Assembly (NCBI GenBank): GCA_951406725.2
Contig: OX597827.1
Coordinates: forward strand, 56,172,001-56,236,000
From: Octopus vulgaris
Lineage: Eukaryota
Direction of reading: 5' to 3'
Length of the DNA: 64,000 nt
Each line of letters opens with the position of its first letter. Position 1 is the stretch's first letter. The notes under the pieces were generated by a model that was not told the DNA's origin, made no database searches, and saw only the letters and a program-made list of their open reading frames with translations. Position numbers and translations under genes: made by a program. Below are positions 8,716 through 53,734 of the stretch, piece after piece.

Positions 8716-9054
8716 TATCTTTGCTGTAAGGCTTCATCTCCACACGTACCAGCTTAATTCAATTTGTCCTTAGTCGAAAGACATCTGTTGTTATCTCCTG
8801 TTATTTTTATTGTATTTTTTTATTGTATTTGTATTTGTGTAACATTGTCCGTTTTTTCCGTCCTTGTTTTTGTATACATTCGCTGCTTTCTTCTAAGGAA
8901 TCTAATGCTCTTAGCTTAGTTTTTCCTTGGGGCTGGCCAGATTGGAGCAATCTCTAGAATAATCAGCTGAAATTGCGAGGATTATCTGGTGCTTGACTAT
9001 GTATATATATGTATGTATGTATGTATATATACATATGTGTGTGTATATATATAT

Positions 9055-11869
9055 GTGGGTAGATAAAGTAATTGAGGTAATCAGAGTAAGTGACAGAATA
9101 CTTAAGATTAGATTAGTGCTTCATCATAGTTTAGCAACCATTATATCAGCCTATGCTCCTCAGTCGGGGCTACCCGATGGACAGAAAGACCGATTCTATG
9201 ACACTCTACTGCAGACTACCTCATTGACGAACGACAGAGACCTTATCTTTGTGGCTGGTGACTTCAATGGTCACGTTGGACGACATGCTGGGGGCTTCCA
9301 TGGCGTACATGGAGGCTACGGCTATGGCTCCCGCAACGAGGAGGGAACCAGGCTGCTGGAGTTCTGCGATGCAAATAATCTTATGATTTGCAACACTAAC
9401 TTCAGGAAACCTACCAGCCACCTAGTCACTTACCAATCGGGCCAACATACCAGCCAAATTGACTACATCCTTACAAGGCAAAGGGAGAGATGGCTGCTTA
9501 TAAATGCCAAAACCTTCCCAGGTGAAGAATGTACCCCACAACATAGACTGGTAGTTAGTGACTTTAGGATCAGGACTAGGAGGACAACCAGAAGACGACA
9601 AATATGGAGAAGAAGGATCTGGAAGCTTAAAGATCCTGCAAATGGACAGAGATTTAGGGACATATTACTTGAAGCCTCTGACGAAGTAGAAGGGGATAGA
9701 GCATCACAGGGGGTAGAAGACAGCTGGACGTTTCTAAGGGACAACCTGCTGAGAGCCACTGACCAGATCTGTGGCTGGTGCAAAGTCCCCTCTCGACCTA
9801 GAATAACGTGGTGGTGGAACAATATTGTAGACAGGGCTATTAGAGAAAAGAGACAGGCTTGGAAGGTCTGGAAAAATGGGGGTAGCAGGGAATTGTATCA
9901 GACTGCCAAAAGAGAAGCTAGGAGACAGGTTTATTTAGCCAGAGGGGAAGCAGATAAGAAAAAATTTGCCAATGTTCTGCGCCGTGAGGACCAAAGACTG
10001 GAGGTGTTTCGTGTTGCAAGACAGTGTGTGAGAGAGAATCGTGATGTGGTAGGAGAGAAGTGTGTTCGCATGGAAGATGGTTCACTTGCGCTAAATGAGG
10101 ATGCAAAGAGAGAGGTTTGGAGATGCCACTATGAAAGGTTGCTGAATGAAGAAAATGAATGGGATAAAGAGAGTCTGCCGAATGTTGACCCAACAGAGGG
10201 ACCAGCTATCCGAGTTGATAGTTCTGTGGTAGCTAAGGCAATTAGAAGCATGAAGACAGGGAAAGCCCCAGGCCCATCAGGAATCACTGCAGAGATGCTC
10301 AAAATGTCTGGTAGTGTCGGCTATAGCCTAGTCACCCATATAGTTAATCAGGTGATACACAAAGGGGTCATACCCAATGACTGGTGTAGCAGTATAATAG
10401 TCAACTGCTACAAAGGTAAAGGTGATGCCCTAGATACAAACAACTACAGAGGTATCAAGCTGTTGGACCAGGTGATGAAGGTTACGGAGAGGGTCATAGC
10501 CCAACTAATTAGAGAGAGAGTTAGTTTAGATGAGATGCAGTTTGGGTTTGTGCCAGGGAAAAGTACTACTGATGCTATATTCCTGGTAAGGCAGCTGCAG
10601 GAGAAATACCTAGCCAAAGATAAGCCCCTGTACCTGGCTTTTGTTGACATGGAGAAAGCCTTCGACAGGGTCCCCCGATCCCTTATCTGGTGGGCAATGA
10701 GAAAACTAGGGATAGATGAATGGTTAGTGAGAGCTGTGCGGGCCATGTATAGGGACGCCGCTAGTAGGGTGAGGGTTGGAAATGAGTACAGTGAAGAATT
10801 CCGGGTAGAGGTAGGGGTCCACCAAGGCTCAGTACTCAGCCCCCTCCTATTTATCATAGTCCTCCAGGCAATAACGGAGGAATTCAAGACAGGATGCCCT
10901 TGGGAGCTCCTCTATGCTGATGACCTTGCTCTAATTGCTGAGTCGCTATCAGAACTGGAGGAGAAGTTTCAGGTGTGGAAACAAGGATTAGAATCGAAGG
11001 GCCTCAGAGTCAATCTAGCTAAAACCAAAGTCGTAATCAGTAGGAAGGTAGACAAATCACAAACACCTTCAGGTAGATGGCCCTGCTCGATCTGTAGAAA
11101 AGGTGTAGGTAGAAACTCTATAAGATGCACCAAGTGTAAGCTATGGACACATAAGAGATGCAGCAATGTCAAAGGAAGGCTAACTAGGAAGATGGTTTTT
11201 GTATGTGGCAGATGCTCAGGAACAATAAACACTGAAAATGCTCTGAGACCAACTTCTGTCACTTTCCAGGGAGAAAAACTAGAAATAGTTGATAGTTTCC
11301 GTTACCTAGGTGACCAAGTCAGCAGCGGGGGCGGGTGTGCTGAAAGTGTAACTGCTAGAGTAAGAATAGCTTGGGCAAAGTTCAGAGAGCTCTTACCTCT
11401 GCTGGTGACAAAAGGCCTCTCGCACAGAGTGAAAGGCAGACTGTATGATGCGTGTGTACGAACAGCCATGCTACATGGCAGTGAAACATGGGCCGTGACT
11501 GCTGAGGATATGCGTAAGCTCGCTAGAAATGAAGCCAGTATGCTCCGATGGATGTGTAATGCCAGTACTCACACTCGGCAGAGTGTAAGTACCTTGAGAG
11601 AAAAGCTGGACCTAAGAAGCATCAGTTGTGGTGTGCAAGAGAGACGTTTGCGCTGGTATGGTCATGTGGCGAGAATGGATGAAGATAGTTGTGTGAAAAA
11701 GTGCCACACCCTAGCGGTTGAGGGAACCTGTGGAAGAGGCAGACCCAGGAAAACCTGGGACGAGGTGGTGAAGCACGACCTTCGAACTTTAGGTCTCACC
11801 GAGGAAATGACTAGAGACCGAGACCTCTGGAAGTGTGCTGTGCGCGAGAAGACCCGGCAGGACAAGTGA
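9055..11869 (+). CDS. RTE ORF: partial APE endonuclease, reverse transcriptase and PHD finger
   Basis: GDFNGHVG, SQIDYIL, QHRLV (APE); NYRGIKLL, QFGF, FVDMEKAFDRV, GVHQGSVLSPLLF, YADD (RT); no stops. The first ~20 aa of the track ORF are microsatellite read-through, so the true N-terminus is missing. Confidence 0.93.
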
Positions 11870-14974: not shown

Positions 14975-15660
14975 GGTCTCCTCAAGCACAGGGTCGAAAC
15001 GCCTTTTTGGGTACTAAGGAAGTGGATATCTGCTAAGTGCAAGAATCTTCTACCTACATTTATGCTGACATTAAGGGAGAAGGCAGGGTGGGGATGGGTT
15101 GGGGTGGGGGGCAAACCATAAAACTTTCCAAGACCTATTCTTACTACTAGATGATAGAGGAGGCAGGTGAAGAAGATTTTATCAGCTAAAGCTGCTATCC
15201 TGTAGGGCCTTATAATAATGTGGGGTAGCCTTTTTGAATATTTCTTTAGAAGAAGAAAGGCATGTGATCCTACAGCTAATTTTTGGAATTAAGTTCTGAA
15301 ATACAATAGGTGAGTGACAGGAGTGTTTATTAATATATTTAAGGTTCTCGTTAGGTTTGTGGAAGGGCTTATAAGAATTAGCTTTAAGATCTAAGGAAAC
15401 ATCTAAAAAGTCAGATTTAGCTAGGTTAGTATAAATAGATACTTTAAGCCCTAAAGAGTTGAAGGTAGAAATTAATTGCTTTCTAAAGGAATCCATAGTA
15501 AGGCCATCACAACTGTGTGACACTGCTAAAGTATCATCACAGTATATACTGATGCTATGACCAGGAAGTTTCAAATTAAGATGGTTTAATATAAACCAAC
15601 TAAATAACATATATCCATGCTATTATATGAACCCATTGAGACACCAAATAATTCGCTTTG
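14975..15660 (-). mobile_element. Penelope-like element RT fragment
   Basis: IYCDD...LGLKVSI...DFLDVSLDL...YKPFHKPN..LKYI...SCH..., typical of the PLE RT/thumb region. Confidence 0.8.
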
Positions 15661-20822: not shown

Positions 20823-23800
20823 GTGCTTTGAGTTGTACCACACGCAAGCTATTTTCTGAACTTGAGCAGAATAACACGTGCATGTCATATTATGATAAAT
20901 AGCTTCACATAGTTCGTTTTCATAGATGTAAATGTATGATGCTATGTTATTGTAACAGTGAACGTAAATAGACGCGAGCTCGTTGGCACTTGTGTGTTTG
21001 TGTGGCCTCATTAGATAAAAAAAAAACCTGAGCAGTGTCTTGCATGCTTCGAGTAATACCGGCGTCAAGGGGTTAACATATGGATAGAAGAAAGTAGCCA
21101 AGTCATTTATTTTAGACTCTTTGGAACTATTTTTCAAAGGTGGTACTGTTATAATTATTGTTGCCTTTGTCCTTAGTGGCCAAAATATATTGAAAGGCAA
21201 TGTTGCACTGTGTTTGTGAATACATCTTTAGACCATCAGCCTCAATCCAGACAGACAGAACAAATTTTTTTTCTTCCTCTTTTGCTCTTTTCTTTTCTTT
21301 TAAACATACTCATGTAAGGACATGTTCTTGTGAACATTCATATTTATTTCTATATTCATTGACTGACAAATGTTCATATATGGTCATAAGTTCAAATGAT
21401 ATTACAGTTATTGCATCATGTTCCAAGGTAAAGCACTTCACTTTGCTTGCCAAAGCCTACCTTATAAGGCTGATGACTGGTTCCACTCTGACCTGAAGGT
21501 TGAGTGGTTCATAGTATAGAGAGACAGACAGACAGAAACAAAGAGAAATGGGGAAAGGAAATCAAGTAGCTGTAATAAAACAGATTATTTACTTTGACCC
21601 CATGTAATAATACAAGGTTGCAAAAATTAACTCTCACTAAAATGAAATAAAACAGTAAAACATAAAACTTCAAAAACATTTTCAAAAATTTTATAAGAAA
21701 AAATTTTAAATTCAAAATTTAAAATTCAAAATTCAACAATTATAAAGCTACATTCATACAGTTGAGATATTTAATAATAATGACAAAACATATTTTAATG
21801 TTGGTAATTAAAGCTAATACACAGAAATTTAACCCTTCAGCATTCAGATTACTCTGTAAAATGTAATGTTTATTTATTCACATTGTTTCAAATTAATCAT
21901 GAATTATCTTGTGACTTTAAGATTTCAATGATGTGATTGTTTATTTTTAGAATAACATTGTAGGGTAGGTGGGAGAGACTAGATCTGGTCAGTCTGGGCA
22001 TAAGGCAGATAGATTATTTAGGCTGGATATAGCTGGTTTTAATGCCTAAAGGGCTAAAATGGAAAAGAGCAACAGGGCCAATGGCTTGATTTGAACTTTA
22101 TATCTGTCATTTTGTCATTTAGAACAGCAGAAATACTGGGTAAATTATCCTTACAAGGCAGAAAAATTTATCAACAAACAGCCATGGGACTTGAACCCAC
22201 ATCCCTCAAGACTCTGGCTGAGTGTTTTACCATTAAGCTAAACTGCCCAAGGCTTGGAGGATGTGGGTTCGAATTTCATGGCTGTTTGTTAACAAATTTT
22301 TTCACCTTGTAAAGCTAATTTAACCAGCATTTCTGCTGTTCTAACAGAAATTCTGAGTTCGAAAAAATATCATCTTCTTGTTTGTATTGTACAATTCACA
22401 TTTCAATGCTTCTAATAAAAACAAATTGACCAGAGTTAGTCATAAATTTTTTGCCTGTTTATGTAGATCACATGTACCACACAGGACATATTTCCCTCGC
22501 ATCCATGCATTATATATGAGACATTTTCCCAAGTTTTTCCAACCACCATAATTACTTGGGATTTATGGAAAGCATGGAAAGGAAAGCATTATATTACCCT
22601 GAATATATGAAACAAGGGCTAACTAAAGGCTGAAAACAAGCATGGACATTTAGAACAAACTTATGAAAATACTTTGGATAGGCAAAGGGTTAAGACAACT
22701 ATTGATTTTTCTCACTTTGGGTGTAATACCAATTAAAAAGTTTCTTGCCTCACCCCATTAACTATGACAGCTCCCACTTTACTATCTGTTTTCGATGCAG
22801 CAAGAGTCCCTGGGCTTTTCAGTCCTTTGCTCCAAATACTTTTATATTAAAGAGAATCCGTTTTAAGTAGAAATGAAAGCAACATCTAACAAATGTACAT
22901 CTCACAAGATGTCTTATTCTGTTAGTTTTCAAGCCTCAGAGATGAAAGGAAGCTCAGAATGGACACATAACAGTTAAGGAGAAACATATATTTCACTGAT
23001 CAATGGCATAAAAAGGGTCAAATTCTGGTTTATTCACCCCATATAATCTCATAACTTAAAAAAAATTTCTTTTGAATTTTCAGAAAACTTTAACAAATCT
23101 GTGTTCTACACACAGGAATTCATACAATTATTAAAAAAATTTTTTTTTAAATTATTTTACCCCTGCCCTCCCCTATAAATCCTAAAAGTTCCACTCTTTT
23201 TCGAATTTTTTTTTTTAAATAAGAGGTTAATATTCTTAAACCAGAATTCCACTGTAAAAAGGTAACTGGTCAAATGGAGTGACCGATTTCTAAGTGGTGG
23301 TGATAGTGGTGATGGAGTAGTGGCAGTAGTGATGGGATTAAAGAAATGATAAGCCACATATGATGACATGCATACAGTCTCCAAGATGTACCATAGTTTT
23401 AACAAACAAGAATCAAAGATAAAAGCTGAAAATTCAAAGTAAATGTGTAGCATTGCATTAAACAAAGGAAGGGATTAAACTGATAACTAAATTAATCTGT
23501 TTCATTTTGGGATTTAGTTTGCAAGATAGTCAAGACTATTGAAAATGTTGCGAGACGCAATGAAAATTTTAGGAAAATAAAAATAAGAAATAAGTGGAAA
23601 TTTTACCGGTGAGTGTGTTACATTATAAGGCACAAAAAGAAAATGACTCTCCCCAGACACAACATAAATTAATCTGGTCATCATCTATTAAATATGCCAA
23701 CACAAACTACAGCATGGTGTATGGCGATGAGAATCTACAAGCCTTGAAGATAGGCAAAAAGCTAAAAGACGGTGAAAGCATAAAAAAGAGGCAGTGTGAG

Positions 23801-26596: not shown

Positions 26597-27062
26597 GGGT
26601 TGGACAAAATAATGGAAACACCTTAAAATTTCAAACAAATTTATTTTAATATGAGGTAGAACCATCTTTGACAGTAATTACAGCTTGAATTCTTTGAGGC
26701 ATGGACTCATACAAAGTTTGAATTGTTTCCAAAGGAATTTTTGACCCTTCTTCAACTAAAACAATCTCCAGTTCTTGTAAGGATGATGGTGAGGATATTG
26801 ACTCCTTACTTGTTTTTCTAAAATGCACCTTAAATGTTCAATAATATTGAGATCTGGGGACTGTGGTGGCCAGATAAGATGTTCAACACTAGAATGTTTC
26901 TCGTGCCATTCAGTAACAACTTTAGCTGTGTGAATTGGTACATTATCATCCTGAAAGATTGTGTTTCCTTCCAGAAACAGTTCCACAACCAAAGGATGAA
27001 TTTGATCAGATAAAATGCTTAAATTGTCTTGACTATTAATTCTGCCATGAAGGGAAACCATT
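26593..27062 (-). mobile_element. Tc1-like (DD34E) transposon 3' fragment with TIR
   Basis: FQDDNVPIH...WPPQSPDLNIIEHL; TIR-like caggggttggacaaaataatggaaacac next to (TA)n. Confidence 0.9.
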
Positions 27063-28246
27063 TGTGTGTATGTGTGTGTATATGTGAGGCCACGTATCTT
27101 TATACCAGTATACATACACAAACATATGTATAGGGAGAGACATGCAAATTAAATAAAAAGCATTTTCTTTCTCACAATATAAAATTCATTTTTCTGTTTA
27201 ATCTATTTCTAACAAATAAATAAAATATGTTACTTAAAATTCAAGAATAACATTTAAATATATATATATATGAAGCTAATAAATTACAACATAATTTAGG
27301 GGTAAAAAAATATGAATAGTAAAATACCTGGTTATCAATGTTAGAGTCTTCTCGATCCTAAATCCAGATATTATTGGAATGCATAGGAACAAAGAACATG
27401 CATAAGGTAATTATATCGGTATAAGATCTCAATTTTGTACATTTGTGTTAAAAGGTGTTAAAAGGCCAGAAGTAATACAGGAATGCATCTATATAAGTTG
27501 TGTGCAAGTATATATATATTTCTTTACTACCCACAAGGGGGCTAAACACAGAGGGGACAAACAAGGACAGACAAAGGGATTAAGTTGAATATATCAACCC
27601 CAGTGCGTAACTGGTACTTAATTTATCGACCCTGAAAGGAAGAAAGGCAAAGTTGACCTTGGCGGAATTTGAACTCGGAACGTAACGACATACGAAATAC
27701 GGCTATGCATTTTGCCCGGCGTGCTAACATTGTGAGCATGTTTGTGTGTGTGAGTGCATGTGTGAGAGAGCGAGGAGTGGCTGTGTGGTAAGTAACTTGC
27801 TAACCAACCACATGGTTCCGGGTTCAGTCCCACTGCGTGGCACCTTGGGCAAGAGCCTTCTACTATAGCCTCAGGCCGACCAAAGCCTTTTGAGTGGATT
27901 TGGTAGACGGAAACTGAAACTGAAAGAAGCCTGTCGGGTATATGTATATATATATAAGTGTGTGTGTTTGTGTGTCTGTGTTTGCCCCTCCCCCCTCCAA
28001 CATTGCTTGACAACCGATGCTGTTGTGTTTACGTCCCCGTAACTTAGCGGTTTGGCAAAAGAGACCAATAGAATAAGTACTAGGGCTTGCAAAGAATAAG
28101 TCCTGGGGTTGATTTCCTTGACTAAAGGCAGTGCTCCAGCATGGCCACAGTCAGATGACTGAAACAAGTAAAAGAGTAAAAGAGATATGAGAGCATGTGT
28201 GTGTGTGTGTGTGTGTGCGTGGGTGTGTGAATGTGCATGTGTGCAA

Positions 28247-44220: not shown

Positions 44221-44242
44221 AAAAAAGAGTTAGGGTATTTAC

Positions 44243-44320
44243 AGTTTGTCGTATCTTAGAAACTGCATCTTTTATTTTCTGTTTCTCTTCTGATATTTCT
44301 CTCTCTTTCTCGTCAAGAGC
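44243..44320 (-). CDS. CFAP43: CFAP43 exon (ALDEKEREISEEKQKIKDAVSKIRQT)
   Basis: ttttgttctgcAG / GTAAAT; 78 nt, phase 0-0, coiled coil. Confidence 0.82.
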
Positions 44321-44412
44321 CTGCAGAACAAAAGAAAAGCAATAAAGATGTATACATTAACGATTTCTTTATTTCAAATCTTAATAAAAACGATTTCTTT
44401 GTATTTAATAAC

Positions 44413-45720
<1,308 letters not shown>

Positions 45721-45763
45721 ATAATTTTGAATTTCTATGTACCACTTTTCATATTCCATGTAC

Positions 45764-45931
<168 letters not shown>

Positions 45932-45936
45932 GTATG

Positions 45937-45973
<37 letters not shown>

Positions 45974-46553
45974 CAGAGCTATGTGATTAAGAAATTCACA
46001 ATCACATAATTTCAAACTCATTTCCACAGTATATTTCCACCTTAAGGCATGTGTCTTCTGGTATATTCCCAGGCTGAATAAAGCCTTGTGAGTAAATTTG
46101 GCAAAAGGAAACTCATCCGAAAGAAACCTAGCATGTATATATACATGTGTGTATATGTGTACATGCATATATGTATGTATGTGTATGTAATATGTATGAG
46201 TGTGTGTGTACGTGTGTGTGCGCATGTGGATGTGTGTGTGTGTGTGTGTGAGTTGATATGACAAAAAGACAAAGGTGATGATAATAGAAATATTATTGTT
46301 ATTATGTTGAATATTAAGGTGGCAAGCTAGCAGAATCATTAGCATGCCAGGCAAACCGATCAGTGGCAATTCATCTGTTCCTACATTCTGAGTTCAAATC
46401 CTGCCACGGTCGCTTTTGACTATCATCCTTTCAGAGTCAATAAATTAAGTACCAGTGAAACACTGGGGTCAGTGTAATCAACAAGTCACCTCTCCCAAAA
46501 ATTCAGGCCCTGTGCCTTTTGTAGAAAAGACTGTATTGAATCTGTAAACTTAC

Positions 46554-46601
46554 TATTTTTCTCTGAGTATCCAACCATGTAATTGGCGTATTTTCTGTGA
46601 G
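46554..46601 (-). CDS. CFAP43: CFAP43 small exon (LTENTPITWLDTQRKI)
   Basis: ttccaaacatgcAG / GTAAGT; 48 nt, phase 0-0; supplies the Trp expected before the first coiled coil. Confidence 0.75.
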
Positions 46602-46878
46602 CTGCATGTTTGGAAAGAAAAATAAAGACTGAATGTAAGAAATTTTTACAGAAATGTGAGGAAATTGGCATAAAGTGATAATAAATCTTATATGATACAC
46701 GGATGCCGGGGAAATGTATCCAGTGTATCAAAATATGAAAATAAAGTTTTATATTACTCACAACGTATGAAACAAAAACTAACAAAAAATCTGAAAAAGA
46801 GCATGGACGTTTAGGATAAACTAATGAATATGCATTGAATGGGCAAACTTCAGAGAGTCTATGCTTTGCTTTCATTTA

Positions 46879-47772
46879 TGAGGTGGTATCAAAAAGTTCC
46901 CAGACTATTCTGGGATCTTTTCGGTTTGACCGGCAGTTTTTTAAAATAATTTCCACGTAACTAAACACTTTTAAACTTCATATACTGGTAGAATGTGTTT
47001 ATAAAACATCTTTTCTCTTGGTTTTATTGAGAAAATTCTGTAGTTTGTAAGACATTTGTTGTTGTTTTTTCTTCAATTTCCGCAAGTTCAACCAATCAAT
47101 GACATCTATTGAGGTGAAAACATTCTGTGCCGTATGAATATGTCCCTCGTTTAAGAAACAGATTGGGTTTATTTACATTTCTGAAGAAAAAAAGATACCC
47201 TTTCCCCCTACCCCTAACCCTAACTAACCCTAATTCTAACCCTAACCCTAAAACAGATTGAAATGCAATAGATCGATACTAGGGTCATAATTATTGGTGA
47301 CAATTTCATATGACACCGCTAGAAAAAACTGCCATTCAAATCAAAAAGATCCCAACAGAGGGCAAAACATGGTTGCATGCACAGTGACAGCTAGCAGTGA
47401 CCGTGATGAGGCAGTGTACCAAGTGACTGCAATTTTGTCATAGACAGGAGGTTGGAACAAAGAGCCATTGTAAAATGTTGCATTAAACTTGGGAAGTCTG
47501 CTACAGAAACATTGAGCATGTTTTGGCAAGCTTATGGTGATGAGACAATGGGTCATATGCAATATTTCGAGTGGCACAGGTGTTTCAAAAGCAGAAGAAC
47601 ATCCCTGGGAGATGATGAGCGATCTGGAAGACCTGTCACAAGCATCACCCCTGGAAATATGGCATTGTGCATTGAGAATTCACCCCCCCCCCCCCCAGGG
47701 CCAGACTGTCTATCAAGAGTTCTACTGTGATGTCTTGAACCATCTGAGGGAGGTCATTCAACAAAAGCGACC
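46879..47772 (+). mobile_element. mariner 5' remnant (HTH region) interrupted by a MITE
   Basis: TIR-like gaggtggtatcaaaaagttcc; EQRAIVK.C.KLGKSATET...AYGDE...FEW...FK.....DDERSGRP. Confidence 0.85.
46912..47353. mobile_element. 442-bp MITE-like element with ~30-bp TIRs and an internal (CCCTAA)n patch
   Basis: gggatcttttcggtttgaccggcagttttt ... aaaaactgccattcaaatcaaaaagatccc. Confidence 0.8.
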
Positions 47773-47935
47773 AGGCGTAGAAGTGGTTGTGTGCTAAGTA
47801 GCTTGCTTACCAATCACATGGTTCCGTGTTCAGTCCCACTGCGTGGCACCTTGGGCAAGTGTCTTCTACTATAGCCTCGGGCCGACCAAAGCCTTGTGAG
47901 TGGATTTGGTAGACAGAAACTGAAAGTAACCCGTC

Positions 47936-47975
<40 letters not shown>

Positions 47976-48131
47976 TGGCAGGGCTGGCCTGCTAGGTAGC
48001 CGGCCAGAATGCTAAAAGAAGACCATCAACGATCAAACTACAAGGGAAATTCTCTAGAGGAAGAATTCAGCGAACACCAGAACCAACTTTGGCGGGCAGG
48101 ACATATGAAAAATTAAATAAATAACAGACTT

Positions 48132-48209
48132 AAATGCATACCTCGGTTTCGGTCTTAACAAAAGAATTACTTGCATAATTCAAGTGTCCGTGACTTCATC
48201 AGTACATTT
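48132..48209 (-). ncRNA. type I hammerhead ribozyme motif
   Basis: AAAUGUA-CUGAUGA-aGUC-loop-GACc-GAAA-CC-ga-GG-UA-UGCAUUU: 7-bp stem I, canonical core, GUA cleavage triplet. Confidence 0.72.
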
Positions 48210-48613
48210 GGTCCTCGAGATGCAAACCGCAAGACCAACCCCAGCTCTCTGTGTCAAGACAGACACGTGCTTAGTCTTACTGATTACATCGGGAATAAAA
48301 TTTCAAATGTCTTGGCTCTGGCGCGCTGAGAGACTCCTGAAGCGAAGGGCTGCAATGAATAATTCACTGCGGGTAGTGCTTACAACTAGGGAACGTATTT
48401 ATTTAAATATTTAAAAATTGAGGGAGATAAATTAATATTAATTTTAATATCAATTTAAAACCAGTATTCCAGCATTCAAAAAATCTGAGGAGTCAGAGAA
48501 AATTCAAATATATGTGTATATTGGCAGGGCTGGCCTGCTAGGTAGCCGGCCAGAATGCTAGAAGAAGACCATCAACGATCAAACTACAAGGGAAATTCTC
48601 TAGAGGAAGAAAC

Positions 48614-48937
48614 ACAAAATTTAGAGGACTGACCACTAAAAGGGGACAGCCTATATGCTAAACATAGATGTCAAATTGCCATTACCACGAAGAATATGTT
48701 CTCAAAAAAAATCTCAGCAAAAAAACAAAATATAAAAATAAGCAAGGCAAATGAAAATATACAAAATAAAAAACCGATTTTTTATTTCGTATATTTTCAT
48801 TTGCTTTGCTTATTTTTACATTTTGGTTTATTGCTGAGATTTTTTCTGAGAACACATTCTTCATGGTAATGGCAATTTGACATCTATGTTTAGCATATAG
48901 GCTGTCCCCTTTTAGTGGTCAGTCCTCTAAATTTTGT
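48614..48937. repeat. 324-bp near-perfect fold-back
   Basis: Arms of ~160 bp, loop of ~5 nt. Confidence 0.95.
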
Positions 48938-49022
48938 ATATAACACAATTTTTAATCTTCAGATTTTTTTAAATATACTAAGCCACTGGTTTTAATTGAT
49001 TAATATCAGTTTCTACCCTTAT

Positions 49023-49057
<35 letters not shown>

Positions 49058-49220
49058 AGAGTCCCTCCTAGCGTGAGGCATCTATATGTGATAGTGCCCT
49101 CTATATAATATAAATAAATAAATTTAAAAGAAAAAAATTGATGGCTTTTTTTTCTCTTATGAAGTTTTTCACGCTAACTACTTGATAAATTCTTATGAAG
49201 ATTTCATCCTATATTTAAAT

Positions 49221-49267
<47 letters not shown>

Positions 49268-49523
49268 TTGTGTCTGTGTTTGTCCCGCCAACATTGCTTG
49301 ACGATCGATGCTGCTGTGTTTACATTCCCGTTACTTAGCGGTTCGGCAAGAGAGACTGCTAGACCAGAATAAGTACTAAGCTTACAAAGAATGAGTCCTG
49401 GGGTTGATTTGCTTGACTAAAGGCAGTGCTCCAGCATGGCCACAGTCAAATGACTGAAACAAATACAAGAATAAAAGAAAAAAGGAATAAATGCATCATA
49501 GAATAAATGATTACAAAACTTAC

Positions 49524-49805
49524 ATTCATCTCTGGACCTGGTACTCCAATGCTATGTAGCTTCATGCACGCTTTGCTCTCTTTTTTAGCAAGGTGAGGTT
49601 TCATGTTGATGGTCGTTTGATGAAATTCCTTTGTAACACGGCTCTGATGTTTGGTCAAAAGTTTGTGTTCATGATTGATTTTATAGCAAGAAGCAGTGCC
49701 ATCATATGCAGTGACCAGAAGGAACTGACAATCCCATGACAGAACGATAGTCTTCACACCTTTGTTGTGATGGTCATGTGTGACTGAGGTGAGCTGAATT
49801 TTACT
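49524..49805 (-). CDS. CFAP43: CFAP43 exon, last WD40 repeat plus linker (SKIQLTSVTHDHHNKGVKTIVLSWDCQFLLVTAYDGTASCYK...)
   Basis: tttcaacAG / GTAAGT; 282 nt open; H...GV...S.D...L.....DG WD40 pattern. Confidence 0.85.
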
Positions 49806-50035
49806 CTGTTGAAATTACAAGAAAATTCAAAAACAAAATTCAAACTATCACCACCACCACCACCACCACATATTTATATGTTGTTTTGCATGTTTATATA
49901 TTTGGACATGTGTGTGCATATACATATATGCGCATTTGTATTTTTTTTTTCATATATGTATGTGTATTTTATGTGTGTTAATAAGTACATATATATATAT
50001 ATATTTGTGCGAGTGTTCAGATGCAGATGTAAATT

Positions 50036-52550: not shown

Positions 52551-53734
52551 ATGCATGTATACCTGTGTCTAAGCATCATGCATGTATACCTGTGTCTAAG
52601 CATCACGTGATGGCTGTAAACAAGCATCACTAAATACACAAGCAAGGTGGTTCTTATTCATTTCCAGTCTTCCACGAAAAACATTTCTAGCTCAGAAAAA
52701 CTTTCCAGGAAACAGTTGAGGGTTGGCAAAAGGAAGGGCATCCAGCCATAGAAAAATTTACCTCAACAAATTCCATTTGACCCAGGAAAGCACAGGAAAT
52801 GATGAAGATGAACAATTTTATCTTACAACAGCTCAACTTGTTGGTCCAGGACCAAGAAATTATATTATTCCACTTTAATAATTTTCTTGTAAATTCCATG
52901 GGTCCTGCTGGTCTTTATTATTATTAGCAGTAGTAGTATTGTTGTGCTTACTGTTGAGGAGTCCCATTTAGGAAATAAATTTATCCAGTCTTGTACCATG
53001 TAAAACTATGACCACCATTCAGAATTGAGAGTAACTTGATAGTATGTGCCATGTTTTTGCTAATTATTTTATGTGCATGTATAGTCGCAAGCAGTCATAG
53101 ATATCTCTTGGCCCTCCTACCCTTGATCTAGCAGAACGTCCTGTATTGTAGCAGCTGGTGGGAGAGAGACAGAAGGTCACTCCAGCACCTGGCTTAATTG
53201 ACCCTGAAAGGCAATGTTGTCTTCAGCGGAAGCACATGGGGCACAGAGAATGGAAACAAATATTGCAATACATTTTATCTAATGCCACAACAATATCCTT
53301 ATTCAATCAGGGCTGTCTTAATAATTTTGTAGTGTTTGCATTGGATGGGAAACAAACTGCATTTTTAGGAGAGACAGTTGATAGTTCTGAAGGAATTAGG
53401 CACTTGAGGTTTATATATCTACTTGTTTTTATTTCTGTCTTCCTATTTTTCATATTTCAATGGCTTAATCCATGCAATGATAACAGCACTATTAAAATTA
53501 TTACCTTTGAAGGTTTTTATTCCTGTGCTGGCCACTTGATAAGTTTGATATTTAAATAACGATCTTATCCTGGGCTTACCTTTGGTTTCACATCCACAAA
53601 GCACTTAGCTTTACGGCGCATCATCAGATCCCAAAACCCAAAGGTAATCTCATTGACTGGCCTATTCTAACTTTTATATTATATACTGCTCTGTAACTTA
53701 GAGTGTGCTTTTTTTTATTTATGTTCTACCGACG

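Follow-up and report, generated by a model that had tools for sequence, protein, structure and literature searches.

The window analyzed here, a 64,000-nucleotide stretch of Octopus vulgaris DNA (GCA_951406725.2, contig OX597827.1, positions 56,172,001 to 56,236,000), contains at 47962-48611 a short repeated element that lies in an intron of a CFAP43-like gene. The bounds of this intron (44321-49517, minus strand) are approximate and come from tblastn of P0004 and the Pfam entry CC_Cfap43. CFAP43-like exons flank the element at 49518-49823 and 44231-44320, both on the minus strand, which confirms the sense orientation to the host transcript proposed in a first-pass annotation made from the sequence; this orientation to CFAP43 carries no evidence of function. 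Across the window (623-61759, minus strand), the gene gives at least 18 exon matches, at 67-100% to P0004. Also in a CFAP43 intron, a stop-free frame of 968 amino acids with endonuclease, reverse transcriptase (RT), and PHD-like matches (8963-11869, plus strand) is apparently an intact ORF of an RTE-type LINE.

Structure of the repeated unit

Read on the minus strand, the element has the order R-U-R. A second, 5'-truncated R copy (48508-48611), corresponding to a pseudo-LTR, is joined without a linker to U, the unique and non-coding part of the unit (48066-48507), and this is followed by R copy 1 (47962-48065), the 3' terminal segment found by repeat search, whose AU-rich tail merges into the (TA)n microsatellite target visible in the sequence at 47937-47961. 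This microsatellite is the tail of a SINE-like repeat (47790-47936) that ends in (TA)n and has 15 matches in the window, this one included; a tRNA-like match at 22176-22247 may be a SINE head. Thus, the element adjoins (TA)n on the left, and on the right it adjoins another repeat. The two R copies form a direct repeat of 104 nt, 98% identical and spaced by 546 nt, whose core is the repeat of about 95 bp at ~47973 that had been noticed before. By these coordinates the locus comprises 1.19 units of 546 nt, bearing out the partial tandem of about 1.2 copies described earlier, with a single hammerhead. The 546-nt unit has a GC content of 39%, and a subterminal GC-rich hairpin predicted near the 3' end of the element (47984-48007, minus strand) recurs in the second R copy.

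The 442 nt that separate the R repeats hold no ORF and thus no RT plus GIY-YIG ORF. When 10 of the 24 listed stop-free pieces of at least 25 amino acids in the unit were compared with Pfam at E ≤ 1, none gave a match. The longest frame (97 amino acids, plus strand) was rejected as a gene: in a search of 1.84 billion representative proteins its best single stretch reached 26.6 bits, and its three summed-repeat matches were all to bacterial Ig/Fn3 repeat proteins. The absence of a credible ORF, as first noted, is therefore upheld. A tRNA search of 47000-49500 gave none, and a scan for promoters and terminators of the bacterial type, ill-suited to animals, was also empty. By eye, a pyrimidine tract ending in CAG and resembling a splice acceptor is seen just past the R-to-U junction (48487-48505, minus strand), and it is echoed in the neighboring family described below; PLEs (Penelope-like elements) have 5' introns.

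A type I hammerhead with a Penelope-type irregularity

The minus strand of U contains a type I hammerhead (48132-48209; descriptor search and folds), letter for letter as first described. Stem I pairs 48209-48203 with 48138-48132 (7 bp) and is prolonged by a 4-bp extension. The core CUGAUGA (48202-48196) is followed by an extra A and by a long helix II region of 45 nt (AGUC, 37 nt, and GACC), then by GAAA (48150-48147), CCGAGG, and UA, with a stem III of 1-2 bp closed by a CGAG loop and a predicted cut between 48139 and 48138. The motif lies ~175 nt before the 3' end, outside the 104-bp repeat. It is the sole match of the window with a stem I of at least 5 bp, and with a relaxed descriptor, matches were obtained in 14 of 200 dinucleotide-shuffled 64-kb windows for this stem length and in 2 of 200 for a stem I of at least 7 bp. 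Both the direct repeat and the hammerhead motif are real, beyond chance. The Rfam models, suggested earlier as a check, did not detect it, there being no hammerhead family in the whole window at the gathering score or in 46500-50000 at E ≤ 10; the miRNA matches obtained at E ≤ 10 correspond to a 324-bp hairpin and to TA repeats and fall well short of their gathering scores. A second, weak hammerhead-like match (~53560-53630, minus strand; stem I of 4 bp, core from 53627) is probably due to chance, with matches in 25 of 200 shuffles.

The A-C apposition at the base of helix II had been taken as a defect, with a G-C pair predicted in the family consensus. No such pair was found. A48195 is kept in four contigs from three runs (X12#9, X6#18, X6#17, and X9#25), and three of the four also cover and keep C48151, although these contigs carry 11, 7, 1, and 1 differences, respectively, all at listed positions other than 48195 and 48151. 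Therefore, the A-C site is the state of the family. It fits the Penelope-type extra nucleotide after A9, since the PLE hammerhead consensus in PMC4209133 is CUGANGAH-G...C-GAAA-N-loop-N-UH, in which the base after A9 is unpaired and G10.1 pairs with C11.1. This assignment is made from the sequence and would require one bulged C in helix II, the alternative register being the A-C apposition; precedents for a bulged helix II are described there for D. virilis and Oikopleura. The two active-fold registers lie 5.5 and 2.6 kcal above the local minimum. As for the core, conservation across copies had been expected, and in agreement with this, the variants listed (40 of 86) leave the core unchanged except at N7 (48198), a free position.

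In the upper part of helix II, the folds predict a 7-bp hairpin with a GCAA tetraloop of the GNRA type (48164-48181, minus strand), where a variant at 48167 keeps the pair as G-U. Helix III is self-complementary around a central GA/AG, with calculated energies of +1.8 kcal/mol for the monomer hairpin versus −6.6 kcal/mol for the self-duplex, as expected in this model for dimer-type hammerheads. Folding of the full dimer did not favor the double hammerhead (−292.1 versus −293.5). On its own, the hammerhead region shows no greater stability than its shuffles (z 0.18), and the hammerhead strand of the whole unit folds better than shuffles both as a linear (z −3.4) and as a circular molecule (z −3.7), the circular fold of the other strand giving a z of −1.2. 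A long-range helix predicted between 48301-48329 and 48067-48110, with pair probabilities of 0.8-1.0, would enclose the hammerhead domain (48067-48329, minus strand), and its pairing is kept in the three variants listed for it. For 26 listed variants placed on the fold of the hammerhead strand, a pair is kept in 12, broken in 5, and not involved in 9; on the other strand the counts are 4, 7, and 15. However, the support of these variants for the fold is weak because all the pair-keeping changes are one-sided wobble changes, with no two-sided compensatory change among the variants listed (from 40 of 86 rows), and because the fold was itself derived by prediction from the copy in the window.

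Copies of the unit in sequencing runs

Part of the unit is present in 20 of 24 listed runs (11 studies, four organism codes), and eight runs contain half or more of its words; none of the 24 is on record as RNA. The contigs of four runs (X1, X6, X9, and X12; three organism codes) were aligned to 48066-48775, a stretch of 710 nt of which about 160 nt belong to the neighboring family, and they covered 30 of 30 bins in each run. Run X1 alone gave 2,042 contig pieces on this stretch, being 386 at 99% identity or more, 490 at 95-99%, 762 at 90-95%, and 404 under 90%. Hence, the sequence is not single-copy but multi-copy, as the earlier reading implied, and the unit has many diverged copies in several related species.

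The contigs are short, and none of them spans the 710-nt stretch. Nonetheless, the middle of U is crossed unbroken by X12#9 (48123-48447), X6#19 (48247-48408), and X9#27 (48231-48327), at a depth of 29-45, single-variant pieces having a depth of 4-12 there. The R-to-U junction is bridged by X12#10, X12#11 (48419-48544), X9#29, and X9#30, and the U-to-R junction is found in all four runs, so both junctions are bridged. Because contigs join the whole ORF-less unit through the middle of U, the unit has been amplified as an ORF-less form, and the independent amplification proposed before is supported in three runs. In X6 and X12, other copies terminate at 48508 next to (TA)n, matching the left end of the window copy, and therefore the 3' end of the family is fixed. 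The bias toward (TA)n is observed in the window copy and in loose ends of two of the four runs, among 24 of 239 rows listed. The depth ratios between R and the middle of U, 1.3-4.2, are confounded by related families.

A joint from 48611 to 48066, found in all four runs, was considered as proof of multimers or circles and discarded, being the U-to-R junction present in the window at 48065/48066. The label "RNA?" of run X12 is a guess and was not used as expression evidence. Run X6 has loose ends, 178 and 255 nt long, that depart from the unit at the two borders of 48259-48327, which suggests that this segment may be a module common to another repeat family. Outside these runs, the exact motif had no match in viral contigs, where the degenerate core pattern gave five matches, in none of which a fitting stem I or III could be seen by eye; prokaryote genomes and phage records gave no match, and the single match in metagenomes is an unrelated GC-rich bacterial coding sequence, a product of chance.

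A neighboring family with a similar 3' end

To the right of the element lies the 324-bp hairpin (48614-48937), then 94 nt, and then another (TA)n. Its left arm is an inverted, 5'-truncated copy of the 3' end of a second family (48614-48773, minus strand), and a direct copy of this 3' end, together with about 94 nt resembling the start of U, occupies 48778-49031 (plus strand) and ends at (TA)n 49030-49057. The arms are 160 nt long and 94-95% alike. The right arm plus the 94 nt align to the minus strand of 48400-48611, comprising the end of R, the junction, and the start of U, with a score of 58, which is reached by 1 of 1000 shuffles and compares with 50 for the best of 1214 other window stretches, in an alignment that is AT-rich and modest. 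Further copies of this family have their end at 48614, bordered by (TA)n or by other flanks, and copies also continue past 48774 into different sequence. A palindromic MITE was rejected as an explanation of the hairpin since four X9 contigs continue past 48774 with other sequence. Instead, by its sequence and by analogy, the hairpin is read as a second PLE-like family that would be related to the first, in an inverted truncated arrangement and with the same (TA)n microsatellite target. An inverted, 5'-truncated arrangement is described for PLEs in PMC8969392 and in PMC8557442. Loose ends also include families with ends that look intermediate between those of the unit and of its neighbor, which suggest further sister families with similar 3' ends.

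Discussion

The unit is probably a non-autonomous, ORF-less Penelope-like retroelement, a dispersed mini-PLE targeting (TA)n. Its features of the PLE type are the partial tandem with a 5'-truncated pseudo-LTR (pLTR) copy, the fixed 3' end, the AU-rich flank, and the hammerhead near the 3' end, and PLEs are known for partial tandems, for inverted truncated copies, and for a preference for (TA)n (PMC8969392; PMC8557442). The kinship to PLE pseudo-LTRs and retrozymes put forward in the first-pass annotation is thereby supported. According to a 2026 preprint (10.64898/2026.07.22.740005), this class is equated with the animal non-LTR retrozymes.

Such a mini-PLE would be mobilized in trans by an autonomous PLE, whose RT and GIY-YIG endonuclease would act on a transcript longer than one unit. 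Target-primed reverse transcription would begin where a (TA)n target is nicked, with priming probably assisted by the AU-rich end of the element itself. Synthesis would proceed through a full unit and 104 nt into the following one before stopping, leaving R-U-R. Stem III appears in the folds too short to fold well alone, and the ribozyme would cut mainly as a dimer. The intronic copy, a solo insertion carrying a single ribozyme, is probably neutral for CFAP43. Because there is only one ribozyme, the locus cannot release a monomer or circle by double cleavage, and because two units are not present here, the element was filed as a retrozyme-like non-autonomous PLE and not as a proven retrozyme.

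A comparison with PLE pseudo-LTR hammerheads (Cervera & de la Pena 2014, PMC4209133) shows the consensus core, an enlarged helix II, a tiny, self-complementary helix III suited to dimers, and an AU-rich downstream flank in both. However, the octopus unit has no RT/EN ORF between its repeats, its stem I has 7 bp and is extended by another 4, against 4-5 bp in min-HHRs, its helix II is far longer and GNRA-capped, and its loop III is only quasi-palindromic (central GA/AG). The non-autonomous Chlamys/MRC1 elements described in PMC8557442 (Craig et al. 2021) share with it non-coding units that form pLTRs, inverted 5'-truncated copies, and microsatellite targets. There, Octopus Naiads are listed with a (TA)n preference, and, unlike the octopus unit, Naiads and most Chlamys elements are described without canonical hammerheads; four short motifs of the locus are absent from the supplement file of that work.

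The non-LTR retrozymes of animals are described in PMC7229834 (Cervera & de la Pena 2020) as short repeats that code for no protein, carry type I hammerheads, and are expressed as circles of 170-400 nt. By its sequence, the octopus unit resembles them in being short and non-coding, with GC below 50%, a type I hammerhead, and a head-to-tail junction. In the available portion of the 2026 preprint (Li, Clavereau & Pollet), families span 51-972 bp with many solo copies, a range that includes the 546 nt of the octopus unit. There, 24 of 57 Xenopus families are homologous to PLE pLTRs and 21 of 22 matching elements are PLEs; that same text names no mollusc. In contrast, the octopus locus has one hammerhead, where membership of the "active" class of that preprint takes two units in succession; at 546 nt the unit exceeds the circles of 170-400 nt; and its ribozyme has the extra base of the PLE type and a 45-nt helix II instead of the canonical 4-bp helix. 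A type I hammerhead in a repeat of ~500 bp is also found in the pDo500 satellite of Dolichopoda crickets (PMC2837043), where it can act singly or as a dimer; nevertheless, pDo500 is a satellite making up about 5% of the genome, whereas the octopus copy is a dispersed intronic insert of 1.19 units. Finally, plant LTR retrozymes have a type III hammerhead in each LTR, unlike the type I motif of the octopus, which lies outside the 104-bp repeat.

An alternative that we regard as unlikely is a classical non-LTR retrozyme, in which two hammerheads of a dimeric or multimeric source would free a 546-nt monomer, ligated into a circle and reverse-transcribed for more than one round, the 1.19-unit insert of the window being an offspring copy. 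Both junctions are bridged in contigs, so that the family graph closes into a 546-nt circle, and the absence of a linker at the R-to-U junction of the window, the stable circular fold (z −3.7), and precedents in coral, mussel, and axolotl (PMC7229834) point the same way. Nonetheless, a single R-U-R insert already has both junctions, and the closed graph proves neither multimers nor circles. Moreover, the 3' end is fixed and not permuted in X6 and X12, the ribozyme is of the PLE type, the unit exceeds the 170-400 nt of the circles in PMC7229834, and only one of the nine predicted dimers tested in the 2026 preprint was cleaved.

A variant of the circular scheme, speculative to a similar degree, is that of a young and abundant family, probably of octopuses, replicating via a 546-nt circular RNA whose internal AU-rich junction would in every case be the site of priming by nicked (TA)n. 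If true, this would account both for the constancy of the 3' end and for an insert of 1.19 units that shows no seam. The hammerhead would then be an unusual one, with its family-wide A/C irregularity, a 45-nt helix II capped by a GNRA loop, and a helix III self-dimerizing through GA/AG. According to the circle hypothesis, copying a ribozyme-made circle for more than one round gives rise to PLE pseudo-LTRs, and the family with its diverged sisters would offer a natural test of this origin.

Less probable still is that an ordinary coding PLE left its pseudo-LTR and ends here, with the ORF lost at this locus only. The depth at 48402-48449 and in R is greater than in the middle of U, and X6 contigs leave U at 48327 and 48419 with long unrelated ends, relatives thus sharing parts of the unit. 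However, the middle of U is unbroken in three runs, at a depth of 29-45 versus 4-12 for single-variant pieces, which makes the ORF-less form itself multi-copy, and none of the 10 scanned pieces has a protein trace. A dead-relic hammerhead, or a repeat of the SINE-like or satellite type that another enzyme, such as that of an RTE, would have moved, is very improbable, since the core varies only at N7 among the variants listed (40 of 86), 47000-49500 contains no tRNA, and partial tandems and inverted truncated copies are traits of PLEs and not of LINEs or SINEs, even though the base of helix II is irregular, the local fold is weak, an intact RTE-like ORF is present in the window, and Naiad PLEs thrive without canonical hammerheads (PMC8557442).

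The mini-PLE favored here appears to belong to a new, undescribed family of an already known kind, that of non-autonomous PLEs or animal retrozymes. The literature search found no report of a cephalopod retrozyme, its scope leaving aside Repbase, most subscription journals, and several supplements that may list cephalopod families. One more hammerhead family is ordinary in itself because thousands of hammerheads are known from PLE ends and retrozyme repeats in many animal genomes. The octopus unit, however, stands clearly midway between a PLE end and a retrozyme and, being short, lends itself to easy tests of what PLE hammerheads do, an open question in the field.

Other traces of mobile elements are scattered in the window. 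A frame of 145 amino acids (15182-15619, minus strand) presumably looks like the C-terminal half of the RT of a Naiad-type PLE, an assignment that received no support from Pfam or from a homolog search. Relics of Mariner/Tc1 elements are also present, with an HTH_48 match at 47449-47607 (plus strand) and a DDE_3 match at 26756-27148 (minus strand).
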